Below the pieces are notes generated by a model. It did not search any database. It saw only the letters and a list, made by a program, of their open reading frames with translations, and had not been told where the DNA came from. From the NCBI GenBank assembly GCA_001792535.1, contig MGGS01000013.1:692-64691 (forward strand): a DNA stretch of 64,000 nucleotides. Direction: 5' to 3'. The stretch is from Candidatus Woesebacteria bacterium RIFCSPHIGHO2_02_FULL_42_20. Lineage in GTDB: Bacteria; Patescibacteriota; Microgenomatia; UBA8517. The translations under genes were made by a program, and so were the position numbers. Shown here in pieces: positions 48,714 to 59,042 of this stretch (positions are counted from its first letter, which is position 1; each line of letters begins with the position of its first letter).

Positions 48714-49367
48714 CTACTCTTTTGTTTCAATTTCAAAGTTGTTTAATTGATCAAAGAGCATTTTTACTTTCTCTTCTGTGACATCCTCCGGTTTTATTTT
48801 GCGGTGAGCAAAGATTTGTTTTTCAATTTCGAACCACATTGGAATAAATTTATCAAATTGTTCTTTTGTGTAAATAAGCTTATCTCTTGACAAATAACTC
48901 CTTTTTACCTCATTGAGACGATGTTCTAGTGATGTTGTTTTGTGTGGAGATACTCTTAAATCGGAGTATACACAAAGTTTTCGCATTATATTCGAATTGA
49001 AAGTTTCTTCTGTCTTTGCAAAACCAAACCCTTTGATCAAAACGAATGTTTTTGAGTTGACGTCCAGTTCTTCACAAATTGTATATGTCGCAATATGATC
49101 GTTATTGCTGAACTTGTCGATAAATTCTCTTTGTACTTTTTTCCAATATTTAATCCCTCTCTCTTCTAAATATTCGGGAAATAGGTCCAGATCTGCCTTA
49201 ATAATATTTCCCATGTTATGGAGAAGACAAGCAGAAATAATTGAGTTTTTATCTAGAGGTTTTTCGAAATTATCACAAATGATGGATGCTACTCCGGCAA
49301 CGCGGAGCATATGAGTCTGTAGCTGTGGCATGATTTTATATTTTTGATAAATTTGGGAGATTTTCAT
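48714..49367 (-). CDS. HD-domain-like phosphohydrolase-fold protein (HD motif degenerate: HN)
   Basis: THMLRVAGVASII ... ISACLLHNMGNI resembles HD-domain motifs I/II, but the invariant Asp of the HD doublet is Asn. Confidence 0.45.
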   Translation of the reverse strand: MKISQIYQKYKIMPQLQTHMLRVAGVASIICDNFEKPLDKNSIISACLLHNMGNIIKADLDLFPEYLEERGIKYWKKVQREFIDKFSNNDHIATYTICEELDVNSKTFVLIKGFGFAKTEETFNSNIMRKLCVYSDLRVSPHKTTSLEHRLNEVKRSYLSRDKLIYTKEQFDKFIPMWFEIEKQIFAHRKIKPEDVTEEKVKMLFDQLNNFEIETKE

Positions 49368-49377
49368 AAAAAATTTT

Positions 49378-49470
49378 GTCGAGATTTACGAAAAAGTTAG
49401 AACCGAATTTCGCAAAGGGTAGCTCGGCCGCCTGCGGCGGCCTCGCTTCCGTTATTTTTTGCGCGCGCGA
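49378..49470 (+). repeat. att-arm repeat copy A (element-end arm; candidate attL)
   Basis: GTCGAGATTTACGAAAAAGTTAGAACCGAATTTC followed by GC-rich hairpins (GGCCGCC-TGC-GGCGGCC, CCTCGC-TTC-GCGAGG) and a T-run; about 80% identical to copies at 55568 and 57184 (inverted). Confidence 0.6.
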
Positions 49471-49493
49471 TTTTATCCTCGCTTCGCGAGGAG

Positions 49494-49955
49494 CTATAGA
49501 GAAATTGAATTCACCAAATCTCTAAAAATAGGAAGATTGGCTTCGTCAATTTGTTGATAAGCTGTTTTCCACTCGGATTTATTAACAACCTCAACATTAT
49601 TTGGCGAGCCTTGAATTCTTACCGTATCATAGTTATCGTTGATAAGAAAAACCTCTCGTGAATATACCCATTCTGTTTGAGCTGTTTCTGATAGAGTTGA
49701 GATATACTCAACTCCTTTGTAATTTCCGATATTCGTTTGTTTAATTCTGATCAACTTACTTCTTAAATCTGATTTTGTTTCCCCATCTTTCATTGTAAGT
49801 AAGGGTAAGTAGCCCTCGAGCCAAGGTTGATTCTTTTTGTACTCGTCTATCGCGGTTCCTTGTGGTTTCTTTGTGTACTGTACACTTATATAATATGAAT
49901 TTTTCTTATCGTACTTTCTGTCTAACCGATCTGTTCCGTATGGATATCTTAACAA
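49494..49955 (-). CDS. hypothetical protein (153 aa) occupying the position of the missing recombinase catalytic domain
   Basis: ORF only; its 5' end abuts the truncated recombinase homology at about 49960. Confidence 0.3.
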   Translation of the reverse strand: MLRYPYGTDRLDRKYDKKNSYYISVQYTKKPQGTAIDEYKKNQPWLEGYLPLLTMKDGETKSDLRSKLIRIKQTNIGNYKGVEYISTLSETAQTEWVYSREVFLINDNYDTVRIQGSPNNVEVVNKSEWKTAYQQIDEANLPIFRDLVNSISL

Positions 49956-49959
49956 TCCG

Positions 49960-50976
49960 AAAACCAGAGGAATAGATGTTGACCCTGAAAAATCAAAGGC
50001 AGTAAAACGAGCTTTTGAAATGTTTGCGGAAGGAAGTCATACTTTTACGGATATTGCCAAATATCTTCATAAATTTGAATTGGGGCGCAAAAACGGGAAA
50101 CCACTTCATATCAACGAAATCCGGCAAATACTCTCGAATAAGTTTTACGTTGGGATAATGTTTTATAACGGTGAGTATCACGACGGAAACCACAAGAGTT
50201 TTGTTTCCAAGGAGCTATTCCAGAAAGTACAAGAGGAAATGCAAAGACGGAGTAAACATTTCAAAAAGTCATATCATTTCCCGTTTTTAGGACTAGCAAG
50301 GTGTAGCGAATGCGGCGCGGCGATCACGGCCGAGCAACACATCAAGTTTTACAAAACCACCAACCGCAAGGTTACTTACGTTTATTATCGTTGCACCAAA
50401 AAACTTGGTCCATGTTCTCAAACGCCAATTACCAATTTTGAAATGGAGGAACAATTAAGAAAAGTTGTTTCTGATGTCGTGCTTCCGCAGTCTTGGGCAG
50501 ACCAGTGGTTGAAATTTTTGGAACGAGACGAGTTAGTCGAAAAACAATCATCAGGAACAACTATCCAAAATCTCAAAACTGAAATTCAAGATCTAGATCG
50601 AAAACAAAACACACTTTTGGACAGTTATCTTGATAGCGTTGTTGATCCTGAAACTTATAAATCTAAGAAAAACGAAATGTTCGAAACAAAACTTAAATTA
50701 CAAGAAGAAATCGTCAAAGTTGAGGAGACGGGTTCGAGTTGGCTCGAACCTATGAGAAATTTCGTAAATTGCGCCTTACAGGCGCAAAAAATCGCGCGCG
50801 CAAAAAATAATTGCGAAGAATTAGCATTCTTCGCAAAACGTGTCGGCTCGAACTTCTTTTTATCCAATCGGCAGCTCTCAGCAGAGCATAAAAAGGGCTT
50901 TGCGGCGCTCCGTGCGGGCGGCGGCGCACGGAGCGCCTCCACCGACTCTATCGATTTTTCTCTCTTGGTCGCATAG
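49960..50976 (+). pseudogene. 5'-truncated large serine recombinase (lacks catalytic resolvase domain)
   Basis: Homology begins at TRGIDVDPEKSKAVKRAFEMFAEGSHTFT and runs to the stop; about 90% aa identity to residues 165-536 of the recombinase at 57432; Ser-nucleophile N-terminal about 165 aa absent; ends at a TTGGTCG core junction (50965). Confidence 0.75.
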
Positions 50977-51141
50977 AAGCGAACAATCTTGAACTAGTTA
51001 CCGAAGCTATTTTATCACATTGGAAACTAATAAACTTTGACGAAAAAAGTATAGTCCTCAATCCATATAATGTGTTCCAAGATAGAAACAGCATGGGTTT
51101 TGTATACAGCTATTGATAATGAAGTCATGGCTTGAACTGAT

Positions 51142-51576
51142 ATGAAGACAGACAAACTAACATTAAAGCAGCGCAAATGGTTAGAAATCTACCTTGAAAC
51201 CGGTAACGCAACTGCAGCAGCGCGTCGCGCGTACAACTGCAACGAACGTAGCGCAAGGCAAATAGGTTACGAGAACATGACAAAACTTGACTTTACAGAC
51301 GTTCTAGAAGCCCATGGCGCTACTGCAGCAATGCTTGTGAAGTTAATTGTAGAAGGTGCTAAAGCAACAAAACTGATTAAAGACAAGGAATTTCCCGATT
51401 GGGAAGTAAGGCACAAATACTTAATAACCATTCTGCGCTTGAAGAAAATGTACCCGCAGCCGGAAGCTATAGGCAATAATGGCGAGGAACCAATCCGTAT
51501 TGTCTTCCAAGACCCGTTTCAAGACCCAACACCAAGCACAAAAATTGACACGAATAGACCTAATTTGATAACATAA
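51142..51576 (+). CDS. phage terminase small subunit (Terminase_2/TerS-like)
   Basis: LTLKQRKWLEIYLETGNATAAARRAYNCNERSARQIGYENMTK matches the TerS HTH signature (LT.KQ..F..EYL..GNAT.AA..AGY). Confidence 0.6.
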   Translation: MKTDKLTLKQRKWLEIYLETGNATAAARRAYNCNERSARQIGYENMTKLDFTDVLEAHGATAAMLVKLIVEGAKATKLIKDKEFPDWEVRHKYLITILRLKKMYPQPEAIGNNGEEPIRIVFQDPFQDPTPSTKIDTNRPNLIT

Positions 51577-51937
51577 TGTTGCTACAATAAGTAGCAAATT
51601 AAGTTAATTAGCTTCATAGAACGCTTTAAGCAGTCCGAAGCAAGTCGCAACGGCTGCTTTTTTATTTGTCCAAAAAGCGTCTATGAAGAAACGTTTCAAA
51701 AGAAAACTAAACGTAGTTCCCACAAAACCGAATTCCGGTTACGCTTCTATTCCCCAAAATCCAACAGAACGGGTAATTCAACTTGTGACGCTTATGGCGT
51801 CGGTGAAAACCGATACAGAAGAAGCAAAGCTAAATGCTACAACCATTTCCGATAACAACGGCAGAAGAATAAACTTATAAAGCCCCTACAATTCCGCATA
51901 AACCCTATAAAAAAATGATATACTTACAGCAAAGATT

Positions 51938-52921
51938 ATGGCTAAAAGCGGTCTATCCATTATTGTTATTGGTGGTTTAAATACAGATATTGTTGCAATT
52001 GGTGCTAAAAAACTATTAAAAGCGGGTGAACACACCTATGCTAGCGAATTAAGGATTGGTGCCGGCGGGAAATCGCGCAATATGGCACAAATGATTGCTA
52101 CTTTAGTTGGTAAGGATAAAGTAGCGATGGTTGGAAAGACTTCAAAAGACCCATATGGTTTTTGGAAAGTGCCATTAGTAGCCTTAAAGCAAGCAAAAGT
52201 AAACACCGAATATGTAAAGATAGCGTCTTTTAAGGAAAGTAATCAGTTCCCCGGAATTGCACTTATACCCGTAGACACGGAGGGAAGAAACCAAATCTAT
52301 GTATTACCGGGAATTACAAATAGTTTTTTGCCCAAAGATATTGATGACGCAAGCGAACTTTTCAAATCGGTTGCAAAAAACAATGGCATATTACTTGTTT
52401 CATTGGAATTACCCTTGCAAACAGCAATTTACGCAATCAAAAAGGCTAATCAAATGGGTATAAAAGTTTTCTTTGACCCCGGTGGAATAGACGAAACAGA
52501 AAATTATAGTGAATTACTAAAACAGAATATCTATTTGATTAAACCAAACGAACATGAAGCTAAAATTCTAACAAGTATAGCAGTTATTGATTTTGATACT
52601 GCGAAGAAAGCAGCGACAAAGTTATTAGGCAAAGGTACAGAAAATGTCCTTATCACAGTTGGGGTAAATGGTGGCTACTTCTTTAACAAAATCGTAGGAA
52701 AACATATCCCTATCCCTAAAATTAAAAGCAGTTCTGTAAAAGACGAAACGGGTTGCGGCGACCAAACCATGGCGGCTTTGTGCACGGCACTTGCCGAAGA
52801 CAAAGATATTCTTGAAGCAATCAATATCGGACTACTTGCGGGAACCTTGCAGTTTGGCAAATCGGGCATTGTCCCTATTACCAAAAAAGAAATTAACAAG
52901 TATTTACATAACAGACTATGA
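51938..52921 (+). CDS. pfkB/ribokinase-family carbohydrate kinase
   Basis: N-terminal IIVIGGLNTDIV (GG dipeptide region) and C-terminal ETGCGDQTMAAL (DTxGAGD-type anion hole) motifs; 327 aa. Confidence 0.7.
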   Translation: MAKSGLSIIVIGGLNTDIVAIGAKKLLKAGEHTYASELRIGAGGKSRNMAQMIATLVGKDKVAMVGKTSKDPYGFWKVPLVALKQAKVNTEYVKIASFKESNQFPGIALIPVDTEGRNQIYVLPGITNSFLPKDIDDASELFKSVAKNNGILLVSLELPLQTAIYAIKKANQMGIKVFFDPGGIDETENYSELLKQNIYLIKPNEHEAKILTSIAVIDFDTAKKAATKLLGKGTENVLITVGVNGGYFFNKIVGKHIPIPKIKSSSVKDETGCGDQTMAALCTALAEDKDILEAINIGLLAGTLQFGKSGIVPITKKEINKYLHNRL

Positions 52922-53310
52922 TTTCCGATGTTTTAGCAGTTTATAATTTAATTAAAGAAACAGTTGACGAAGCGAGTGTATTAAACGCTTTATTTTCGTT
53001 TGATGGTACGCGAAAAGAAGGTGACGAAGTAATTAAAGTGAGGATTAACAAGGCAACAGACAACCAATGGTTTTATGAAATAGAACCGTATGAAGATTAT
53101 ATTTTAATTCCCTTTCCGGTTAACCAAGCAGTATATGTGGATTATGGTCTAGAAAAGGATAGTCAAAACCCTTCGGTAAAATTTTTTAGGTATGTATCAA
53201 GCCCGCTTTCAAGATATAGCCAAGGTGGTGAACCTAATGTTAGGGTAGATTTTTTTGTGTTTGGGTACAGACCTTCGGATTTAATGGCAAGTCGCAAGAA
53301 AAAAGCCTAG
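52918..53310 (+). CDS. hypothetical protein (130 aa)
   Basis: ORF overlapping the pfkB stop by 4 nt; no motif. Confidence 0.3.
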   Translation: MISDVLAVYNLIKETVDEASVLNALFSFDGTRKEGDEVIKVRINKATDNQWFYEIEPYEDYILIPFPVNQAVYVDYGLEKDSQNPSVKFFRYVSSPLSRYSQGGEPNVRVDFFVFGYRPSDLMASRKKKA

Positions 53311-53326
53311 CAAGGAAAAAATAACA

Positions 53327-54034
53327 ATGAACGTCAATGGTAATTTACAGTATAAGCAAGCACAACGGGAACTTTTTGACGAACTTGAAAATAAGTTCAA
53401 AAACGGTGAAAAACCCTCAACCATTGTTGAACCCGTAAAAGATTATGAAAATGATAATAGAATTTGTTTAACAAGCGTAGCTTTTATTCCACCACACCTT
53501 CAAGAAATAATATTGTCCACGGTTGTTGACCCGCTTAAAAGTGCAGATAGCCAACAATACTATTACATTCAAAACTCCTTCCATTTAACCATTCAAAATA
53601 TACGAACGATTAACTTGCCGCCGTTGTTTAGCGATAGCGATATTGAAAAGGCAATAAAAGTATTTGACCAAATAGTGCCAAAACATAAACATTTGTTCTT
53701 TGATATTGAAGGTCTTTTTGAACTTCCAACAAGTCTATCTTTGCGTGCCTATGCTGATAAAGGATTAAAAGATTTAGCCTTGGAATTAAGGCGGGGGTTA
53801 AAAGAAGCCGGGGTTCCCGATAACAAAACGTATGCTTCAAGTGATGTAGTATTTGGCAATACAAGTGTTTGCAGATATACAACAACACCAAATGATTTGT
53901 TTTTTAATGAAGTTAAACGGCTAAAAAATATAAAGATAGGTCGTTTAGAAGTTTCAACAGTTTCCTTAATCACGACAAATTCTGTTTGTCACCCTAGTAA
54001 AACAAAAATAATCAAAGAATTTAACTTGGCTTAA
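53327..54034 (+). CDS. hypothetical protein (235 aa), weak 2H-phosphoesterase-like HxT/S motifs
   Basis: FHLTIQ and CHPSK could be the two H-x-T/S-x motifs of the 2H superfamily; weak. Confidence 0.3.
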   Translation: MNVNGNLQYKQAQRELFDELENKFKNGEKPSTIVEPVKDYENDNRICLTSVAFIPPHLQEIILSTVVDPLKSADSQQYYYIQNSFHLTIQNIRTINLPPLFSDSDIEKAIKVFDQIVPKHKHLFFDIEGLFELPTSLSLRAYADKGLKDLALELRRGLKEAGVPDNKTYASSDVVFGNTSVCRYTTTPNDLFFNEVKRLKNIKIGRLEVSTVSLITTNSVCHPSKTKIIKEFNLA

Positions 54035-54046
54035 AGTGTTTATTTT

Positions 54047-55591
54047 ATGGATAATGACATTGACCTAACAAAGCTAAAATATGTTTTATATGCCCGTAAA
54101 TCCACAGACGACCCCGAACGGCAAGTAAGGTCGGTTGAAGACCAAATAGCCGAATGTGAACATTTGGCAATGCGGTTAGGTATACACCTCGTAAAACCCC
54201 ACATAATTGAAAAAAAGTCCGCTAAAAGACCCGGACAAAGACCATTGTTCAAACAAATGCTAAATGACATCAGGAAAGGCGTCTACGACGGCATAGTGGC
54301 GTGGAACCCGGATAGGTTGGCAAGGAACATGAAGGAAGGTGGGGAAATTATTGATATGGTGGACGAAGACCTAATAAAAGATATGCGCTTTGTTACCCAC
54401 CACTTTTCAAAAGACGCGAACGGTAAAATGTTACTTGGAATGGCATTTGTATTATCAAAGCAGTATTCGGACAAATTATCACAAGACGTAACAAGGGGCT
54501 TGCACCGTAAAGTTGAAGAAGGCAAATCACACATTCCAAAACACGGCTATATTAAAGACGAAGAAGGGTTGTATAGACCCGACGGCAGAAACTTTGAATT
54601 GATTTGTGAAGCGTGGGCAATGCGTAAAGAAGGCACGTCCTTGGAACAAATAGAAGAATATCTTGATAAAGAAGGCTATCAACGAATAATTAAAACGTCC
54701 GGTAAACCCGTAAAACTTACCTTCAAGCGATTAAGCGATTTGTTCAAAGACCCATTCTACTACGGCTTACTTATTCAAGGCGCAAAACGGATTGATTTAC
54801 GTGAAGTATACGAATTCAAACAAGCTGTAACCGAAGCGGACTACAACCAAATTCAACAGCTTTTTTATAACAAAACCAAGCCATATCGTACGCGCCGGTT
54901 AAGTTTCTATCCCCTTAAACTAATGCTTAAGTGCAGTTTTTGCAGTAGTAATATGGTGATTGCGCCTTCAACCGGTTCAACAAAGCGGTATTTGAATGCA
55001 AGGTGTGATAACAAGTTCTGTTCGCGCAAAAAGAAATCAATACGTATGATAAACGTATTTAACTTTATTTACGACTTTTTGGACAAAGGACTTAATTTTA
55101 CAGTAAAGGATTATAACGACTACTACAAGGGAATGACCACGTATTCCGAAGCCAAACAACAAAAGGTGCAAATTGAAATTCACAGCAAGCAAGCAATTTT
55201 GCGCAATGTTGATATTGAAGTGCGGGAACGCGCATTAAAGATATTGGATTTTGAAAAGTCTTCAACGGTGCGGAAGATTAACGAAGACAAAATCGCCGAG
55301 CTTGAAGACCAAAAAGAACAATTGAAGGAACAAATAGCCAAGTTGCAGCAGCAAATAGCAGAACCCGAAAAGGATAGATTAACGTTAGAAGAATTCTTGA
55401 ACTTGTCAAAAAATGCCGCCACGGTGGTCAAATCGGGTGACGCAAGTGTTAAAGACCAAATTTGCCGTTTAATTTTCTTGAACTTTACCGTTGATGAAGC
55501 GAAAGTGGCGTCATATCAACTAAAAGAACCATTTACCACCCTACTAAAACATCATAGTTTGTCATTTGGTCGAGATTTACGAAAAAGTTAG
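54047..55591 (+). CDS. large serine recombinase (resolvase catalytic domain, recombinase domain, zinc ribbon, coiled coil)
   Basis: YARKSTDDPERQVRSVEDQ (catalytic Ser), DRLARN, Cys cluster CSFC...C.NKFC, C-terminal coiled coil; last 7 codons lie inside att-arm repeat B. Confidence 0.85.
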   Translation: MDNDIDLTKLKYVLYARKSTDDPERQVRSVEDQIAECEHLAMRLGIHLVKPHIIEKKSAKRPGQRPLFKQMLNDIRKGVYDGIVAWNPDRLARNMKEGGEIIDMVDEDLIKDMRFVTHHFSKDANGKMLLGMAFVLSKQYSDKLSQDVTRGLHRKVEEGKSHIPKHGYIKDEEGLYRPDGRNFELICEAWAMRKEGTSLEQIEEYLDKEGYQRIIKTSGKPVKLTFKRLSDLFKDPFYYGLLIQGAKRIDLREVYEFKQAVTEADYNQIQQLFYNKTKPYRTRRLSFYPLKLMLKCSFCSSNMVIAPSTGSTKRYLNARCDNKFCSRKKKSIRMINVFNFIYDFLDKGLNFTVKDYNDYYKGMTTYSEAKQQKVQIEIHSKQAILRNVDIEVRERALKILDFEKSSTVRKINEDKIAELEDQKEQLKEQIAKLQQQIAEPEKDRLTLEEFLNLSKNAATVVKSGDASVKDQICRLIFLNFTVDEAKVASYQLKEPFTTLLKHHSLSFGRDLRKS

Positions 55592-55671
55592 AACCGAATT
55601 TCAAAGTTGTTAGCTCGGCCGCTTCGCGGCCTCGCAAGGTGAGCGCGGCGCCCCCACCCGCCGCGCTTCCG
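55568..55671 (+). repeat. att-arm repeat B; left copy of a perfect 104-bp inverted repeat
   Basis: GGTCGAGATTTACGAAAAAGTTAGAACCGAATTTCAAAGTTGTTAGCTCGGCCGCTTCGCGGCCTCGCAAGGTGAGCGCGGCGCCCCCACCCGCCGCGCTTCCG; reverse complement found exactly at 57184..57287; contains two GC hairpins. Confidence 0.85.
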
Positions 55672-55733
55672 TTATTTTATGCGTATTTTATGCGCGCGCG
55701 ATTTTTAGATAGCAATTATTAATGCGAAATATT

Positions 55734-56966
55734 CTAATAAGACTTCAGTGTGCTTTTCAGTAAAATTCCGTTTGCCCAATATTCACCAGTACCCCCAGAG
55801 GGTAAAATGTCATAGGTATAGTGCTGGTTATACAATTTACTTTCTACTTTTATAACTTTGACTCCGGCTATGTAGTCACTATCTTTTATTTGTCCCACCA
55901 AACGCCCATCTCCCAAAGGATGTCCGGAAGAAGCGCTTAGCTCCTTACCATCAGCTAAAAGTATGTGTGCAATTCTAAAGTCAGCAGGAACAAGGGAATG
56001 GCTAACTTGTTGAACAGTTCCAGCAACTGGTTCACCAGTATCATTGGTTGTCCAAACGGGCGTACCAATAACAACGTCTTTAATCAAAACTTCTCCCTGC
56101 GGTGTAGAAATTTTTGCTTGACTATCAAGACAAATTGGTCCGGGTCCGCCGCGATAGCGTTGTATCAACTCGACTGATTCAAATAAATCTAAGGTCTTAA
56201 GCTTGTTCTGAAAATCAGTTTCTTTTCCACTAGGGACGTTCAATTCAGTGGAAAGGGCTTCATACCATGGATTCGTTCTGTTCCCAAAAGATTCCTGTCC
56301 GCTTTCAATATTTACCACCGCAATTTCAACAGTAGAGCTGCCAATCTGTTTTTTAGCCACATCGACTAAATCGGGATAATTCGCATGTAACCATTCATCT
56401 TCTTCAAACCAGCTCAATGGTGTTCTAAATGTTACCCATAAATAAGCTGTGTCTTCTCTAATGCGTTCTTTGTATTTGCCCAACTGTTCGTCAGTATAGG
56501 TATAGTCCACATTGAGTATCTTGGAATCCGTGCTTAGTTTGCGTCCATAGAGCTGGCCGCCGATACGACTAGGTGTGGCAAAAAGAGTGGTTTTAATCTT
56601 CAAAACATCTGAAGGAAGTTGTAAGTCCATAAGAGATAATTGATCACTGGCGATCTTGATATCTGCATTCGGTTTAAACTTTACCCGCAACTTGCCCGTC
56701 ACAATATCTTCTGTTTCATTTTTACCCAAGGTAAGCTTATCTATCTTCTTGTTCAGTGTATAGAAAGTATAAAACCCTCCAAATAATAAAACGGCAAACA
56801 GAATCATCGCTGAAAACATCCATGGATTTATCTTTCTCCTTCTGGAAGATGCTGTGAGATTGCTTGTCTGATTTTGCCCGATTTGCTGCGTATTTTGATC
56901 ACCAATATTTGTTTGATTTTCCATATGTATCTCTATGAAAAAGTATATCATATTTGAAGATTTCAA
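55734..56966 (-). CDS. membrane-anchored protein with C-terminal Hint (Hedgehog/intein-like, bacterial intein-like) domain
   Basis: TM anchor (MFSAMILFAVLLFGGFYTFY), 230-aa unknown domain, then GGPGPI-CLDSQAKISTPQGEVLIKDVVIGTPV...HPL...YTYDILPSGGTGEYWANGILLKS: Hint signature beginning with the nucleophile Cys and ending in the Y.YD....F.ANGIL.HN block. Confidence 0.7.
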   Translation of the reverse strand: MKSSNMIYFFIEIHMENQTNIGDQNTQQIGQNQTSNLTASSRRRKINPWMFSAMILFAVLLFGGFYTFYTLNKKIDKLTLGKNETEDIVTGKLRVKFKPNADIKIASDQLSLMDLQLPSDVLKIKTTLFATPSRIGGQLYGRKLSTDSKILNVDYTYTDEQLGKYKERIREDTAYLWVTFRTPLSWFEEDEWLHANYPDLVDVAKKQIGSSTVEIAVVNIESGQESFGNRTNPWYEALSTELNVPSGKETDFQNKLKTLDLFESVELIQRYRGGPGPICLDSQAKISTPQGEVLIKDVVIGTPVWTTNDTGEPVAGTVQQVSHSLVPADFRIAHILLADGKELSASSGHPLGDGRLVGQIKDSDYIAGVKVIKVESKLYNQHYTYDILPSGGTGEYWANGILLKSTLKSY

Positions 56967-57183
56967 GTATCAAAATGCTCTTGTATTTTTATTGCCTTCT
57001 CTGGTATATTGTTATCGTACTCAACTCATGGCGGATCTCTTTTTTGATGGCCGTCTTGGTCAACTAGGAGAGATCCGAGTTGAGTACAACCAGGGCGGCC
57101 ATTTAAGTTGTATAAAAGTTCTTTAAAATTTTTGCGTTTTTTTTAGTTTTGCTCAGAACAAAACCAATTCGAGCTGACACGTT

Positions 57184-57372
57184 CGGAAGCGCGGCGGGTG
57201 GGGGCGCCGCGCTCACCTTGCGAGGCCGCGAAGCGGCCGAGCTAACAACTTTGAAATTCGGTTCTAACTTTTTCGTAAATCTCGACCAAAAGAGAAAGAG
57301 AGTCCGTCGAGTTGGAGGCGCTCCTTGCGCCGCCGCCCGCACGGAGCGCCGCAAAGCCCTTTTTATATTCTG
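57184..57372 (-). repeat. inverted att-arm repeat C (104 bp identical to B) fused to an inverted 85-bp copy of a recombinase 3' end
   Basis: 57184..57287 is the exact reverse complement of 55568..55671; 57288..57372 reverse complement matches 58838..58925 (3' end of recombinase 57432..) with few mismatches. An inverted attP-like site. Confidence 0.85.
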
Positions 57373-57431
57373 CCGAGAGCTACCGGAAAAAAGAAGGAAA
57401 GAAAACGCAAAAATTTTAGGAAAACAAAAAT

Positions 57432-59042
57432 ATGAACAAATACATAGCTTATTGCCGAAAATCGAGAGACGAAGCAGACAAACAAATTTTGTCCATTGAG
57501 GCGCAAATTGCTGAATTAAAAGAATTTGCCAAACGGGAGCATTTGGAGATTGTCGAGTTTGTCGAGGAAGCCAAAACCGCCAAAATACCAGGAAGGGAGC
57601 AGTTTGCCAAAGTCCTAAAGAAAATCGAACAGGGGCACGCAAACGGAATCGTTGCGTGGCACCCCGATCGTTTGGCTAGAAACTCAATGGATGGCGGTAA
57701 AATTATTTACCTTCTGGATACCGGCAAACTGCTTGATCTGAAATTTCCAACGTCTTGGTTTGAGAATACACCACAAGGAAAGTTTATGCTTTCAATCGCC
57801 TTTGGCCAATCGAAATATTATGTAGACAATCTTTCCGAGAACGTAAAGCGAGGATTGCGCCAGAAACTCCGCAACGGAGTTTGGCCGGCTAAAGCTCCTT
57901 ATGGCTATGTGAACAATCCCAAAACCAGAGGAATTGATGTTGACCTCGAAAGATCAAAAGCCATCAAACGAGCTTTTGAAATGTTTGCGGAAGGAAGCCA
58001 TACATTTACTGATATTGCCAAGTATCTCCATAAATTCGATCTGAAACGCAAAAACGGAAAACCTCTCCATGTCAACGAAATCCGGCAGATACTCTCAAAC
58101 AAATTTTATATTGGAATTATGTTTTACAACGGTGAGTATCACGACGGAAATCATAAATGTTTTATCTCTAAAGAGTTATTCCAAAAAACACAAGGAGAAA
58201 TGAACCGAAGAAGCAAACATTTTAAAAAGTCATACCGTTTTCCGTTTTTGGGACTCGTAAGGTGCAGCGAATGTGGCGCGGCAATCACCGCCGAGCAACA
58301 CACGAAGTTCTACAAAACTACCAACCATAAAGTTACCTACGTTTACTATCGCTGCACCAAAAAACTTGGTCCTTGTTCTCAAATACCAATTACCAGTTTT
58401 GAGATGGAAGAACAAATAAGAAAGGTTGTTTCTGATGTGAGCTTGCCGCAAAGCTGGGCTGATAATTGGTTGAAATTTTTAGAACGGGACGAATTAATCG
58501 AGAAACAATCATCAGAAACAACTATCCAAAATCTCAAAACTGAAATGCAGGAAATAGATCGAAAGCAAAACACACTTTTGGACAGCTATCTCGATAGTGT
58601 CGTTGACCCCGAAACTTATAAAAGCAAGAAAAACGAAATGTTTGAATCAAAACTCAAATTACAAGAAGAAATCGCCAAAGTTGAGGAGACGGGTTCGAAT
58701 TGGCTCGAACCTATGAGAGAATTTGTAAATTGCGCCTTACAGGCGCAAAAAATCGCGCGCGCAAAAAATAATTGCGAAGAATTAGCATTCTTCGCAAAAC
58801 GTGTCGGCTCGAACTTCTTTTTATCTGATCGGCAGCTCGCGGCAGAATATAAAAAAGGCTTCTCGGCGCTCCGTGCGGGCGGCGGCGCAAGGAGCGCCTC
58901 CAACTCGACGGACTCTCTTTCTCTTTTGGTCGGGGTACCAGGAATCGAACCTGGACCGCACGGCCCCCAGCCGCGCATTCTACCACTAAACTATACCCCG
59001 GTAGAGAGTATTTTATACCCAAAATACCTTAGTTTGCACTAA
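57432..59042 (+). CDS. large serine recombinase; 3' end continues antisense through tRNA-Pro
   Basis: YIAYCRKSRDEADKQILSIEAQ (catalytic Ser), recombinase domain, zinc ribbon CSECG...C.KKLGPC, coiled coil. Homology with the other copies ends at about 58925; the last 39 codons (GVPGIEPGPHGPQPRI...) are antisense tRNA, so the native C-terminus is replaced by the integration junction. Confidence 0.85.
   Translation: MNKYIAYCRKSRDEADKQILSIEAQIAELKEFAKREHLEIVEFVEEAKTAKIPGREQFAKVLKKIEQGHANGIVAWHPDRLARNSMDGGKIIYLLDTGKLLDLKFPTSWFENTPQGKFMLSIAFGQSKYYVDNLSENVKRGLRQKLRNGVWPAKAPYGYVNNPKTRGIDVDLERSKAIKRAFEMFAEGSHTFTDIAKYLHKFDLKRKNGKPLHVNEIRQILSNKFYIGIMFYNGEYHDGNHKCFISKELFQKTQGEMNRRSKHFKKSYRFPFLGLVRCSECGAAITAEQHTKFYKTTNHKVTYVYYRCTKKLGPCSQIPITSFEMEEQIRKVVSDVSLPQSWADNWLKFLERDELIEKQSSETTIQNLKTEMQEIDRKQNTLLDSYLDSVVDPETYKSKKNEMFESKLKLQEEIAKVEETGSNWLEPMREFVNCALQAQKIARAKNNCEELAFFAKRVGSNFFLSDRQLAAEYKKGFSALRAGGGARSASNSTDSLSLLVGVPGIEPGPHGPQPRILPLNYTPVESILYPKYLSLH
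58926..58999 (-). tRNA. tRNA-Pro (anticodon GGG), CCA encoded
   Basis: Folded by hand: acceptor CGGGGTA/TACCCCG, D arm with GG, anticodon stem CGCGG/CCGTG, loop CUGGGGG (anticodon GGG), T arm CCAGG-TTCGATT-CCTGG, discriminator A plus CCA; 74 nt. Confidence 0.8.

Follow-up and report, generated by a model that had tools for sequence, protein, structure and literature searches.

The SSV1-type partitioned integrases, which are tyrosine recombinases of archaeal viruses, have attP within the integrase ORF, and the gene is split on integration at a tRNA gene. In the Salmonella Hin H-segment and the yeast 2-micron/FLP system, inverted repeats terminating in recombination sites flank the recombinase gene; Hin and Gin, both small serine recombinases, depend on an enhancer and Fis and work on sites that are identical, and FLP is a tyrosine recombinase. 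Members of the IS607 family resemble the elements described here in being very small, with little else on board, and in being moved by a serine recombinase. However, TnpA of IS607 belongs to the small serine recombinases and carries its DNA-binding domain at the N-terminus, and IS607 shows little specificity for its target, lacks long inverted repeats and is often accompanied by TnpB; none of this is seen in our array. Our comparison set of large serine recombinases (LSRs) from phages and ICEs (Listeria A118/LI integrase, phiC31, Bxb1 and SPbeta SprA/YokA) shares with the array a resolvase catalytic domain, a recombinase domain and a zinc ribbon with a coiled-coil region, an integrase gene that overlaps or adjoins attP, and a distal motif that sits some 5 bp further outward in attP than it does in attB. 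The tRNA islands and prophages of tyrosine integrases (P4-like, Islander-type, tycheposons) are alike in integrating at tRNA 3' ends and restoring the displaced bases, in forming tandem arrays at one tRNA, and in carrying defence and accessory cargo. Mageeney et al. 2020 (PMC7192596) called the use of a tRNA gene by serine integrases previously unreported and rare (14 of 297), and among tycheposon-like elements a minority, 27 of 937, have an LSR (preprint 10.1101/2020.12.28.424599).

In the window (the whole 64,000-nt stretch of DNA that was analysed), positions 49374-58932 are, in all likelihood, a tandem array of three integrative elements inserted by LSRs at the 3' end of a chromosomal tRNA-Pro(GGG) gene in a Candidatus Woesebacteria (CPR) genome. 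The evidence for this reading is all computational. The array and its flanks contain the following features.

48714-49367: chromosomal left flank, start of an HD-domain gene
49374-50971: E1, decayed
49374-49381, plus strand: attL core of the array, TTTTGTCG, adjoining the HD-domain gene start
49382-49474, plus: E1 arm 'a' (P' arm), 88% identical to the E3 arm
49494-49955, minus: E1 cargo remnant, a 153-aa ORF without family match
49935-50971, plus: E1 recombinase, 5'-truncated, with Recombinase and Zn-ribbon domains
50972-55572: E2, rec2-type element
50972-51117, plus: E2 left arm 'X'
51142-54034, plus: E2 cargo, including further ORFs of 65, 130 and 235 aa
51142-51576, plus: E2 cargo, protein like the N-terminus of a terminase small subunit
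51938-52921, plus: E2 cargo, PfkB-family kinase
54047-55591, plus: rec2, large serine recombinase of a second lineage
55565-55572, plus: core TTTGGTCG at the E2/E3 boundary, attL of E3 (P2-core-a)
55573-58932: E3, rec3-type element, adjoining the tRNA
55573-55706, plus: E3 arm 'a'
55734-56966, minus: E3 cargo, a 410-aa predicted membrane or secreted protein without family match
57184-57385, minus: internal inverted intact attP-like site (p 57385-57291, core 57290-57283, arm a' 57282-57184)
57432-59042, plus: rec3, large serine recombinase with Resolvase, Recombinase and Zn_ribbon_recom domains
58830-58932, plus: arm p and core (TTTGGTCG, 58925-58932), right-hand copy of the inverted repeat bracketing rec3
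58927-59000, minus: tRNA-Pro(GGG), target gene (ARAGORN; Rfam tRNA model)

Comparison of repeats and junctions within the window recovered five junction sites with a TTGGTCG-type core, and the arms combine at them as expected if one is attL, two are hybrid junctions, one is an internal attP and one is attR. The leftmost core differs from the others by one base, left of GTCG, and is followed by the arm AGATTTACGAAAAAGTTAGAACC..., related to the copy at 55573 as given above. At 50965-50971 the truncated recombinase runs into TTGGTCG and then into a different arm, CATAGAAGCG...; at 55565-55572 the end of rec2 is followed by the core and arm 'a', and at 58925-58932 the end of rec3 is followed by the core and the tRNA. 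The sites at 49374 and 58925 behave as the attL (B-core-P') and attR (P-core-B') that an earlier, sequence-only reading had made of them. That reading had also placed the same recombinase 3' end at 55568, but the sequence in common there is limited to the 8-bp core and the arm, the 3' ends of rec2 and rec3 being unrelated. Domain searches bore out that all three recombinase ORFs are large serine recombinases or their remnants, and no tyrosine recombinase was found among the scanned array ORFs (nine of at least 130 aa by Pfam, and the 65-aa ORF by PHROGs only). The three recombinases are not of one kind, as had been supposed: rec2 represents a second lineage, whose arm (X) differs, and integration splits the rec2 gene.

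Independent assemblies from ENA, JGI and NCBI contain this array on at least 17 contigs. Although these repeats are where many contigs end (L003-L008), an N-gap in the NCBI scaffold MGHN01000001.1 coincides exactly with the inverted-site core, and L005 and L095 are possibly chimeric, the whole array is spanned by contigs of 99.9-100% identity from several independent samples and assemblers (L001, L002, L009, L101, L103), and dozens of MAGs unrelated to this one share the architecture, among them chromosomes that are complete or nearly so (L036, L042, L055). Chimeric joins at repeats, arising in metagenome assembly or binning, are a most improbable source of these repeats and junctions.

The target tRNA-Pro(GGG) is intact (untruncated; 61.2 bits with the Rfam tRNA model against a gathering score of 29) and on the minus strand, as had been claimed, although the position given for it, 58926-58999, was off by one base. 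Also as claimed, the ORF of rec3 reads antisense through the entire tRNA. Since the recombinase ORF always overlaps the tRNA, whose last bases, CCA included, come from the element, one might take the tRNAs to be element-borne and the overlap to be a fixed gene arrangement. This is hardly credible: the sequence beyond tRNA-Pro(GGG) encodes the housekeeping genes recA, recX and RNase Y, target tRNAs elsewhere frequently lie inside host tRNA clusters (L031, L042, L046), tRNA identity varies among recombinases more than 90% identical to each other, and the internal attP copy reveals the element's own sequence in the tRNA's place.

Insertion of E1, E2 and E3 beside the tRNA was probably carried out in each case by an LSR. 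Each incoming attP would recombine with the half-site B' (tRNA acceptor end and T-arm), irrespective of the left neighbour; if newcomers always use this tRNA-side half-site, the oldest element is the one farthest from the tRNA. The most decayed element, E1, occupies that place, and successive integrations at the tRNA 3' end, as first suggested, are the most economical reading. Parsimony and decay are our sole grounds for the order, and E2 may instead have gone into the attL of E3. The recombinase of E1 corresponds to rec3 from residue 156-157 onwards and stops at the core; its identity to rec3, put earlier at about 90%, is 86.7% in nucleotides (to 57896-58902) and 88% in amino acids. The E1 arm contains a T-loop-like box, GTTAGAACC, a GC hairpin (GGCCGCC-TGC-GGCGGCC) and a final 23-nt sequence, TTATTTTTTGCGCGCGCGATTTT. 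The E3 arm has the same box (GAAC at 55591-55594), two GC hairpins and a T-run, with a terminator-like site at 55641-55668. The compensatory substitutions reported between these hairpin copies amount to a paired extension of one base pair and a loop change, and convincing covariation comes only from other loci; there, stems differ in sequence between species and the structure is retained, in keeping with the view of the arm hairpins as conserved structures.

The rec2 protein matches the phrog_95 integrase (E 3.8e-54) and is 27% identical to rec3. Because it is cut off at the core (55565-55572), rec2 ends ...SFGRDLRKS* inside the E3 arm. The X arm, read across the core in the rec2 frame, codes for the C-terminal tail that rec2 lacks, about 47 aa long (RIEANNLELVTEAILSHWKLINFDEKSIVLNPYNVFQDRNSMGFVYSY*), in frame and conserved both in the window and in L012, and unsplit homologues of 552-558 aa are found (P0130, P0153, P0201, P0233, P0263/4/7). 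The rec2 gene spans its own attP, and integration removes its final 45 codons or so. In this loss rec2 resembles the SSV1-type integrases, and rec3 does so to a small extent, but the enzyme here is a bacterial LSR and the detached part is the C-terminal tail only. In L001, rec2 is interrupted by an IS-like gene (HTH_38).

The order of E3 is core-arm (a), cargo, inverted intact attP copy (a'-core'-p'), recombinase, p-core and tRNA, which is the standard layout of its lineage. On the minus strand, the internal site consists of the last 103 nt of rec3, the core and the arm; its identity is 95% to 58830-58932 and 98% to 55558-55671. The sequence-only reading took this inverted copy, together with the truncated recombinase, for rearrangement debris of a simpler tandem array, produced by later decay and inversion. 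Decay is real in E1, with its truncated recombinase and diverged arm, and the IS-like gene in L001 indicates that the population does show it. The inverted copy, however, has a near-identical counterpart ahead of the recombinase start in almost all of the relatives examined: in about 45 loci from other Patescibacteria, inverted repeats of around 100 nt (80-137 nt), mostly 97-100% identical, bracket the recombinase gene, and the copy (recombinase 3' end, core and arm) recurs across recombinases 45-90% identical to rec3, which argues against independent debris. As an account of both features, debris is very unlikely; recurrence refutes it for the inverted copy, and it stands for E1 only. The putative attP-like copy is a defining part of the rec3-type element, and phage and ICE LSR elements differ in lacking such a second, inverted attP. 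They differ further in that here the recombinase ORF runs across the crossover point. Past the core and through the tRNA, the rec3 ORF gains 36 extra codons foreign to the element; as the ORF crosses attP, integration swaps its final 15 codons or so. The rec3 catalytic residues R9, S11, D79, R80 and R83 are invariant in alignment A1.

Far from being a single little-described locus, as had been thought, this array is one case of a family with thousands of members and many target tRNA species. We found more than 7,900 homologues, and 571 of 598 candidate stretches in GTDB species genomes encode a relative. A convergent tRNA 3' end abuts the recombinase 3' end in 54 of the 63 loci with enough downstream sequence, and more than 20 anticodons are represented, whereas the phage and ICE enzymes target one protein-coding gene. 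The full layout (B/core-arm, cargo, inverted intact attP-like site, recombinase, core/tRNA) was mapped in about 25-30 loci, where the elements are flanked by direct repeats of 4-8 nt; a core this short, and the serine recombinase itself, set them apart from tyrosine-integrase tRNA islands. In two loci (L019, L026), attL and attR have GTGCGC or TGCGC in common and the internal attP has only GTGC, a pattern that a simple single crossover does not account for. The cargo consists mostly of restriction-modification and other defence genes. In a further difference from phage and ICE LSR systems, searches for phage or conjugation genes and for an RDF candidate identified none. The elements belong to two large and apparently undescribed serine-integrase lineages, whose insertion sites are the ends of many different tRNA genes.

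The sequence-only reading had proposed looking for an empty attB site and for circular junctions; none of the former was found for this species in the JGI contigs scanned, nor were any of the latter, and mobility is therefore argued from comparison between loci. One element type occurs at tRNA-Arg(TCG), tRNA-Tyr, tRNA-Leu(CAG) and tRNA-Arg(GCG) with an identical arm and recombinases 85-93% identical, and within the protein cluster at least 90% identical to rec3 the C-terminal tails derive from at least four different tRNAs. That nearly identical elements occupy different tRNAs from genome to genome, with proper attL and attR sites and variable cargo, requires integration. It speaks against a mainly invertible-DNA switch, in which the recombinase would act as an invertase flipping its own gene and cargo relative to the tRNA promoter, and the tRNA association would reflect regulation rather than repeated integration. 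We think this doubtful as the main explanation, although near-identical inverted repeats ending at cores do bracket rec3 and cargo separately, as in the Hin H-segment and 2-micron, and the predicted free form here is likewise a circle of two unique segments separated by two inverted sites. Inversion is known in those systems and is a candidate here. The recombinase is flipped in few loci only (L074, probably L082), and one orientation is common to the 54 of 63 loci. A flipped-type junction on contig L095 is indistinguishable from a repeat-caused chimera because the discriminating SNPs all lie in the distal part of the repeat. Inversion, if it occurs, would be rare or biased; it may well take place in addition to integration, yet it is insufficient as the whole story.

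Characterised LSRs, to our knowledge, avoid palindromic crossover dinucleotides; the dinucleotide predicted here is palindromic in several elements (CG, GC). The crossover would fall at the complement of tRNA positions 72-71, two bases predicted here to be CG at 58931-58932, and a 4-8 nt match over C74, N73, N72 and N71 would decide which tRNA species an element can use. The motif aTTTCC of the P arm is the mirror image of GGAAAa in the P' arm, the centre of symmetry falling between tRNA positions 72 and 71, with a weak dyad symmetry signal (0.30 of positions matching against a background of 0.22-0.25). Relative to the tRNA, the T-loop box of the arm lies 4 nt farther from the core in 20 loci and 5 nt in eight; the box of the X arm, CTTGAAC, is 5 nt farther. 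With the centre at 72/71, the box takes up positions 16-24 in attP and 11-19 in attB, just as the ZD motif of LI integrase does (Rutherford et al. 2013, PMC3783163). The outward displacement of 4-5 bp matches what has been published for the zinc-ribbon-domain motif of LSRs when attP is compared with attB. The zinc-ribbon domain would read the near-universal T-loop box GGTTCGAAYC (antisense GAATCGAAC) at positions 11-19 of the tRNA half-site, and its mimic ((A)ATTCGAAC; in the window GTTAGAAC) at positions 16-24 of the element arm. In contrast to textbook LSR sites, the distal motif is recognisable in just one half-site per att site, with no recognisable ZD motif in the P arm or B flank.

Finally, our preferred guess is that the internal attP copy serves as a second usable attP and, as p stands left in both, as a partner for integrase-only inversion with attR, and that it moreover puts a binding site for the recombinase, along with a terminator-like hairpin, ahead of the recombinase gene. 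If inversion occurs, recombination of the internal attP with attR would give back sites of the two original types, so that a directionality factor would be superfluous.

Five junctions around one core were obtained in the window by repeat search and direct reading, so that the array with a shared core at tRNA-Pro(GGG) described in the sequence-only reading is borne out. The tRNA gene (58927-59000, minus strand) is the sole ARAGORN tRNA in the 64-kb window, and it is intact, scoring 61.2 bits against the Rfam tRNA model (gathering score 29) without truncation.

Junctions and recombinase genes of the array
49374-49381: core TTTTGTCG; on the left the chromosomal flank of the HD-domain gene, on the right arm a (AGATTTACGAAAAAGTTAGAACC...)
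50965-50971: core TTGGTCG; on the left the end of the truncated recombinase, on the right arm X, which is unlike a
55565-55572: core TTTGGTCG; on the left the end of rec2, on the right arm a
57184-57385, minus strand: the last 103 nt of rec3 on the left, then the core, then arm a on the right
58925-58932: core TTTGGTCG; on the left the end of rec3, on the right the tRNA
50020-50976, plus strand: truncated recombinase of E1; Recombinase and Zn-ribbon domains only
54047-55591, plus strand: rec2, 514 aa; Resolvase domain, and a PHROGs match to the phrog_95 integrase over residues 8-489
57432-59042, plus strand: rec3, 536 aa; Resolvase, Recombinase and Zn_ribbon_recom domains

These junctions delimit three stacked elements. 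E1 (49374-50971) consists of an arm, an ORF of 153 aa and a recombinase without its first ~156 codons, has no internal site, and is a decayed rec3-type element. E2 (50972-55572), of rec2 type, contains the X tail, a PfkB kinase, ORFs of 65, 130 and 235 aa, a protein resembling the N-terminus of a terminase small subunit, and rec2. E3 (55573-58932) is an intact rec3-type element with a cargo gene of 410 aa. The E1 ORF was considered as a fragment of this cargo gene and rejected, as the sequences bear no resemblance. The 410-aa protein (55734-56966, minus strand) has a hydrophobic N-terminal segment and no Pfam or PHROGs family match; its C-terminal part looks Hint-like by eye (CLDS...GHP).

Read from left to right, the junctions of the array join chromosomal flank to a, the E1 recombinase side to X, the rec2 side to a, and the rec3 side (p) to the tRNA. 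A newcomer that uses the tRNA half-site only and ignores the left side would, by repeated insertion beside the tRNA, yield these junction types, and decay is greatest in the element farthest from the tRNA, which fits such a history. Later elements might instead have inserted into an existing attL, but this order is less economical because arms a and X would then have to act as targets.

The recombinases themselves are of a recognizable class. The catalytic domain (PF00239) was matched by rec3 (E 2.6e-22) and rec2 (E 1.3e-23), with the motifs YCRKSRDE and HPDRLARN in the former and YARKSTDD and NPDRLARN in the latter, and R9, S11, D79, R80 and R83 are invariant in an alignment of 39 rec3 homologues, as are cysteines C278, C281, C308 and C315. 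PF07508 and PF13408 were matched by rec3 and the E1 remnant; for the rec2 type these matches occur only in homologues, not in rec2 itself. The solved structures closest to rec3 are SPbeta integrase chains (9dxh and related entries). Identity between rec3 and rec2 is 27%, and the E1 recombinase, whose start corresponds to about rec3 residue 156-157, has 86.7% nucleotide and 88% amino-acid identity with rec3. The core falls at residue 500 of the 536-aa rec3 ORF; rec2 has 514 aa and its unsplit homologues 552-558 aa, and both types have LSR C-terminal domains. Judged by these predicted domains, rec3- and rec2-type proteins fit the domain-based definition of large serine recombinases (LSRs). Phage_integrase had no Pfam match in the nine scanned array ORFs of at least 130 aa, nor was a tyrosine recombinase family among the 25 commonest in the cargo of related elements. 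Similarly, Pfam scans of the array ORFs and related cargo did not find the OrfB/TnpB family. Among the cargo Pfam families there was no candidate recombination directionality factor (RDF), although RDFs are too diverse for such a search to exclude one.

With rec3 as the query, more than 7,900 homologous proteins were retrieved at E <= 1e-10, and Patescibacteria supplied the closest. Their C-termini have a conserved ...S-L-L/S/C-V-G followed mostly by peptides such as VPGIEPGPHGPQPRILPLNYTP or VGRLELPTSSSQTMRASQLRHTP, which read as antisense translations of different tRNA genes; by a loose motif count, such tails occur in 88 of 120 homologues examined. We fetched 80 loci from GTDB species genomes (among the candidate stretches listed, 571 of 598 encode a relative), and a convergent tRNA gene abuts the recombinase 3' end in 54 of the 63 that could be tested, that is, with at least 150 nt past the recombinase match. 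The abutting tRNAs have more than 20 anticodons between them (Pro, Leu, Arg, Glu, Lys, Tyr, Trp, Val, Gln, Ile, Ser, Ala and Gly), and many of the targets lie within host tRNA clusters. Thus, the tRNA is the chromosomal target, and the family is not confined to tRNA-Pro. Insertion occurs at the tRNA 3' end and leaves the tRNA intact, with a direct repeat of 4-8 nt common to attL and attR that always includes the complement of tRNA C74, N73, N72 and N71.

Direct-repeat core by target tRNA
Pro: GTCG
Arg, Tyr, Leu: GTGC
Trp: GCAG
Gln: GTTG or GCTG
Ser: GCGG

A single element type was found in four genomes at tRNA-Arg(TCG), tRNA-Tyr, tRNA-Leu(CAG) and tRNA-Arg(GCG), all four of which end in GTGC; its arm and internal site are identical throughout and its recombinases are 85-93% identical. 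Furthermore, within the >=90% cluster of rec3 itself the tails derive from four or more tRNAs. We regard the presence of near-identical elements at different tRNAs as the strongest evidence presented here that the elements are mobile.

Among the 120 best rec3 homologues, about 20, including P0009, P0019, P0022 and P0025, are ~900 aa long and consist of a full recombinase fused in frame, where p meets the core, to a second copy without its first ~120 residues. In the four proteins named, the BLAST breakpoint lies at rec3 residues 117-121. The only such junction that was read directly (L060:3061-5850) falls at conserved A-F-G-Q codons (TTTGGNCAR) that resemble the CCA-end core. These fusions suggest that elements have repeatedly inserted into the recombinase gene of an element already in place.

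Comparison among the loci also accounts for the minus-strand copy at 57184-57385. In nearly every locus, the recombinase gene's final 80-137 nt, together with 4-10 nt of tRNA end, are repeated in inverted orientation 35-130 nt upstream of the recombinase start codon, mostly at 97-100% identity, and on the opposite strand this copy runs past the core into the arm, not into a tRNA. A direct copy of the arm, 97-100% identical, lies another 0.7-9 kb upstream and follows unrelated flank. The layout in approximately 25-30 loci is therefore B (chromosomal flank), core-a, cargo, a'-core'-p', recombinase, p-core, tRNA, and E3 with its left core (55565-58932) matches it exactly. The element thus contains, between cargo and recombinase, an intact attP-like internal site that is nearly identical to the copy split between its ends. 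The sequence-only reading had ascribed the array to successive LSR integrations at the tRNA end with later decay and inversion. Its first part is supported as the most economical reading; the second is contradicted for 57184-57385, since the copy recurs at a fixed position across relatives and independent debris would not recur likewise in recombinases only 45% identical.

The p repeat contains a hairpin, and in the window the rec3 3' region has one with a T-run on the tRNA's strand (58797-58772). The GC hairpins of the arm are strong, and the stems listed differ among loci while pairing is kept. In addition, the distal end of arm a (TTATTTTTTGCGCGCGCGATTTT; 49452-49474 and 55684-55706) is a perfect 23-nt inverted copy of a recombinase coding stretch (50788-50810 and 58749-58771) ~155-180 nt before the core, and matches of 17-41 nt occur at equivalent arm and recombinase positions in many other loci. 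The distal end of a' instead resembles a different recombinase stretch (AACGTGTCGGCTCGAA).

What the internal site does can be read in more than one way. Either attP copy could be usable for integration. Alternatively, the internal site may recombine with attR and invert the recombinase segment, which is bounded by inverted sites and is seen in both orientations between species: in L074 the recombinase is reversed (tRNA-Trp closely precedes its start and an intact p-core-a follows its stop), and L082 appears to be arranged like it. As p lies on the left of both the internal site and attR, the products would again be attP-like and attR-like, and such an inversion would be reversible without an RDF; the strong excess of one orientation (54 loci versus few) argues that it is rare or biased. 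It is equally possible that the internal site serves as an operator and insulator ahead of the recombinase gene. A flipped rec3 segment would read tRNA joined to p' and the rec3 start, plus the rec3 end and p joined to a.

An 11.5-kb contig, L095 (JGI 3300025313), has the order recA', tRNA-Pro, inverted repeat, rec3 forward, E1-type end, X, E2, arm a and cargo gene, and so combines a flipped-type junction with a switch between rec3 and sequence of the E1 remnant; it may come from a rearranged strain or be a chimera caused by the repeats. We dropped it as direct proof of inversion because the SNPs that discriminate the repeats are all far from the core and a chimera is possible; the second switch lies in sequence common to rec3 and E1.

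How are such different tRNA genes recognized? A box conserved in the arm, (A)ATTCGAAC (in the window, GTTAGAAC), is similar to the T-loop box of the tRNA read antisense, GAATCGAAC. In the tRNA, GAAC starts at +18 from the G complementary to C74 (30 of 30 tRNAs), whereas in the arm it is displaced outward, by 4 nt in 20 loci and by 5 nt in eight; in the window, the tRNA's GAAC is at 58947-58950 and that of the E3 arm at 55591-55594. In the Listeria integrase, the zinc-ribbon domain (ZD) reads a motif at attP half-site positions 16-24 (Rutherford et al., 2013; PMC3783163), and in attB the motif is 5 bp nearer the centre, a spacing that distinguishes attP from attB (PMC3783163). In our loci this spacing rule is satisfied for right-hand half-sites only.

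A consensus of 36 internal sites suggests where the centre lies. A proximal motif, aTTTCC, at -12 to -7 mirrors GGAAAa at +12 to +17 around a point between the bases complementary to tRNA positions 72 and 71, and a dyad-symmetry scan has a weak peak at this same centre (0.30 versus a background of 0.22-0.25). Counted from there, the arm has the box at positions 16-24 and the tRNA has it at 11-19, which is the published geometry. From the symmetry centre and the agreement of the box positions, we infer crossover at N72-N71, corresponding to the CG at 58931-58932 in the window. The attL core TTTTGTCG differs from TTTGGTCG solely to the left of GTCG, which is consistent with this crossover, and it would follow that the native tRNA-Pro gene had no encoded CCA, as in L014 and L016. 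In many loci (L013-L017, L029-L031) the target tRNA genes encode C74 only, not the full CCA. At tRNA-Pro the element supplies TTGG: the occupied gene encodes CCA and the displaced native end (CGACAAAA) does not.

The sites have a core of 4-8 nt in common. A caveat is that the proposed central dinucleotide is palindromic in several elements (CG in the window, GC in the L019-type element), whereas characterised LSRs cross over at a non-palindromic one. LSR att sites should also have two roughly symmetric half-sites, and here only the proximal motif is mirrored between them; B flanks are unrelated among loci, and no distal motif was seen in the P arm of the internal-site consensus or in the B flanks of the mapped loci. 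In L019 and L026, two independent insertions of one element type at tRNA-Arg, attL and attR share GTGCGC or TGCGC and the internal site has GTGC only; this site is 2 nt (GC) shorter than the attL/attR core, which a single crossover does not explain.

Recognition of the target by a zinc ribbon that reads the T-loop box is the probable scheme. If only one half-site is read specifically, attR would still be attB-like and attL still attP-like, and the twin inverted attP would then permit rearrangement by the integrase alone. A fuller model can be offered only tentatively, as we consider it less likely than not: a Patescibacteria LSR radiation with its ZD retargeted to the universal T-loop and acceptor end, for which tRNA ends matching over 4 nt are usable and one half-site is read, with RDF-free inversion, re-targeting and perhaps excision, and with the recombinase tail exchanged at each step.

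The second lineage has the same geometry and an additional consequence for its gene. Arm X (50972-51117) is open for ~47 codons in the rec2 frame across the core. In L012, from another species and another chromosomal context, the same tandem of a rec2-like and then a rec3-like element stands at tRNA-Pro(GGG), and its X arm is in frame, conserved at the protein level and stopped at the equivalent position. A search with the reconstituted 556-aa rec2 returned 1,594 homologues. Among the best 120, most end at 510-528 aa with tails such as ...SSRGERTRTSDL, the antisense T-arm in another frame, and four of 552-558 aa have an X-type tail; a 554-aa form also exists in the 90% cluster of the window's own rec2. 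These unsplit ORFs were considered as circular forms and rejected, because the contexts examined (L091 and L092; L093 and L094 are shorter contigs with the same arrangement) are junctions of tandem rec2-type elements at tRNA-Pro(CGG). The long forms occur where the rec2-type element farther from the tRNA is joined directly to arm X of the nearer one, which shows that the X tail is in frame and that the rec2-type gene spans attP. Integration would thereby detach the last ~45 codons of the gene, and a rec2-X junction (...TGTCATTTGGTCGCATAGAAGCG...) would mark either an E2 circle or a restored full-length rec2 gene. The X tail has a conserved L-E-L/P encoded by CTTGAAC, a T-loop-like box whose GAAC (50991-50994) lies 5 nt more distant from the core than its tRNA counterpart, and thus the spacing rule holds in the second lineage too. 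The attP form of rec3 ends in ...LLVEIYEKVRTEFQSC and a stop, and once integrated the ORF continues for 36 codons more, across the tRNA; the effect of integration is smaller on rec3 than on rec2.

The array is not an assembly accident: contigs 99.9-100% identical from several ENA samples, Rifle JGI samples and NCBI MAGs span it, and the exact rec3 protein is present on at least 17 contigs. One NCBI scaffold has an allele 87.6% identical to rec3 and an N-gap at the inverted core. In L001:5531-8161 (ENA ERZ27254767), rec2 is interrupted by an opposite-strand gene of 332 aa with an HTH_38 domain, which looks like an IS30-type transposase.

In contigs with the exact recA and HD proteins the site is always occupied. 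The sequence-only reading had proposed looking for an empty site: exact-pattern scans of JGI contigs for the HD flank joined to tRNA-Pro (...AAAAAATTTTGTCGGGGTACC...) gave no match and are uninformative, as the contigs of this population are mostly in ENA. Excision of E3 would leave rec2 joined to the tRNA (...TGTCATTTGGTCGGGGTACC...), and excision of E2 and E3 would leave the E1 recombinase joined to it. L108:250-440 (ENA ERZ4903055), with the same recA flank, has a different occupant joined to the core at the tRNA-Pro locus, and the resident tRNA-Pro there appears to be split, its 3' and 5' parts flanking another complete tRNA-Pro(GGG); for both reasons it was rejected as an empty site. In L005:1-830 (Rifle ANAN16 scaffold_9593), the E3 arm is joined (...GAGT to TCGAGATTTACG) to a foreign, GC-richer flank with an M50-type protease gene and a plus-strand tRNA-Pro(GGG) 40 nt away behind a terminator hairpin. 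As this tRNA is in the wrong orientation and 40 nt from the arm, L005 was set aside as a genuine site; it is probably a chimera or pseudo-site, or else the element went into another host at a non-canonical site.

Cargo length ranges over 0.6-8.7 kb in 26 mapped elements. Its Pfam families are dominated by restriction-modification (C5/N6 methylases, HpaII, HindIII, Alw26I, CfrBI, Eco57I, Mrr and Vsr), with Shedu, reverse transcriptase and LexA-like repressors also present, and there are no capsid, conjugation or replication families among the 25 most frequent of the 64 matched. IMG/VR holds only four relatives, one of which (L096) added just another inverted repeat, so the elements are unlikely to be typical phages. 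By content they look like small integrative cassettes with defence genes, not prophages.

To our knowledge, serine integrases have been thought to avoid tRNA genes, and CPR genomes have few recognisable mobile elements. A 2020 survey treated serine integrases that use a t(m)RNA gene as previously unreported and needing proof, with 14 of 297 candidates (PMC7192596), and an LSR is present in 27 of 937 Prochlorococcus tycheposons and cryptic elements related to them, many of which lie at tRNA genes (10.1101/2020.12.28.424599). With large serine integrases, the rec3 and rec2 types share the domain definition and the attP/attB motif-spacing rule. Islands of tyrosine integrases behave in the same way at tRNA ends, but the enzyme, the defining feature of that family, differs. 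Hin/Gin invertases have ~190 aa and a C-terminal helix-turn-helix, whereas rec3 and rec2 are far larger and have LSR C-terminal domains. IS607 has a small transposase with an N-terminal MerR-like domain, often TnpB, and no long terminal repeats; in contrast, the present elements have the LSR domain order and long inverted repeats. A literature search of incomplete coverage yielded no description of a CPR LSR lineage at tRNA genes, nor of a twin inverted attP, a T-loop mimic in the arm, or a split LSR gene. While the enzyme family and its chemistry are well known, the class of target, the architecture of the sites and the gene-spanning attP are unfamiliar. Imitation of the T-loop box by the attP arm fits, in silico, the structural rule for attP and attB. 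Our mechanistic statements beyond the anatomy of the sequence are inferred.

In summary, a very large LSR lineage appears to have tRNA ends as its normal target. Whether an LSR can read a sequence present in every genome, what share of the att site has to be specific, and whether directionality persists with only one specific half-site can now be tested. For annotation, tRNA-antisense recombinase ORFs and recombinases of ~900 aa become recognisable as junction products. In genome engineering, enzymes for a universally conserved, multi-copy and insertion-tolerant site would be attractive candidates. Finally, in the biology of CPR bacteria, these elements seem to be a main vehicle of restriction-modification and other defence genes.
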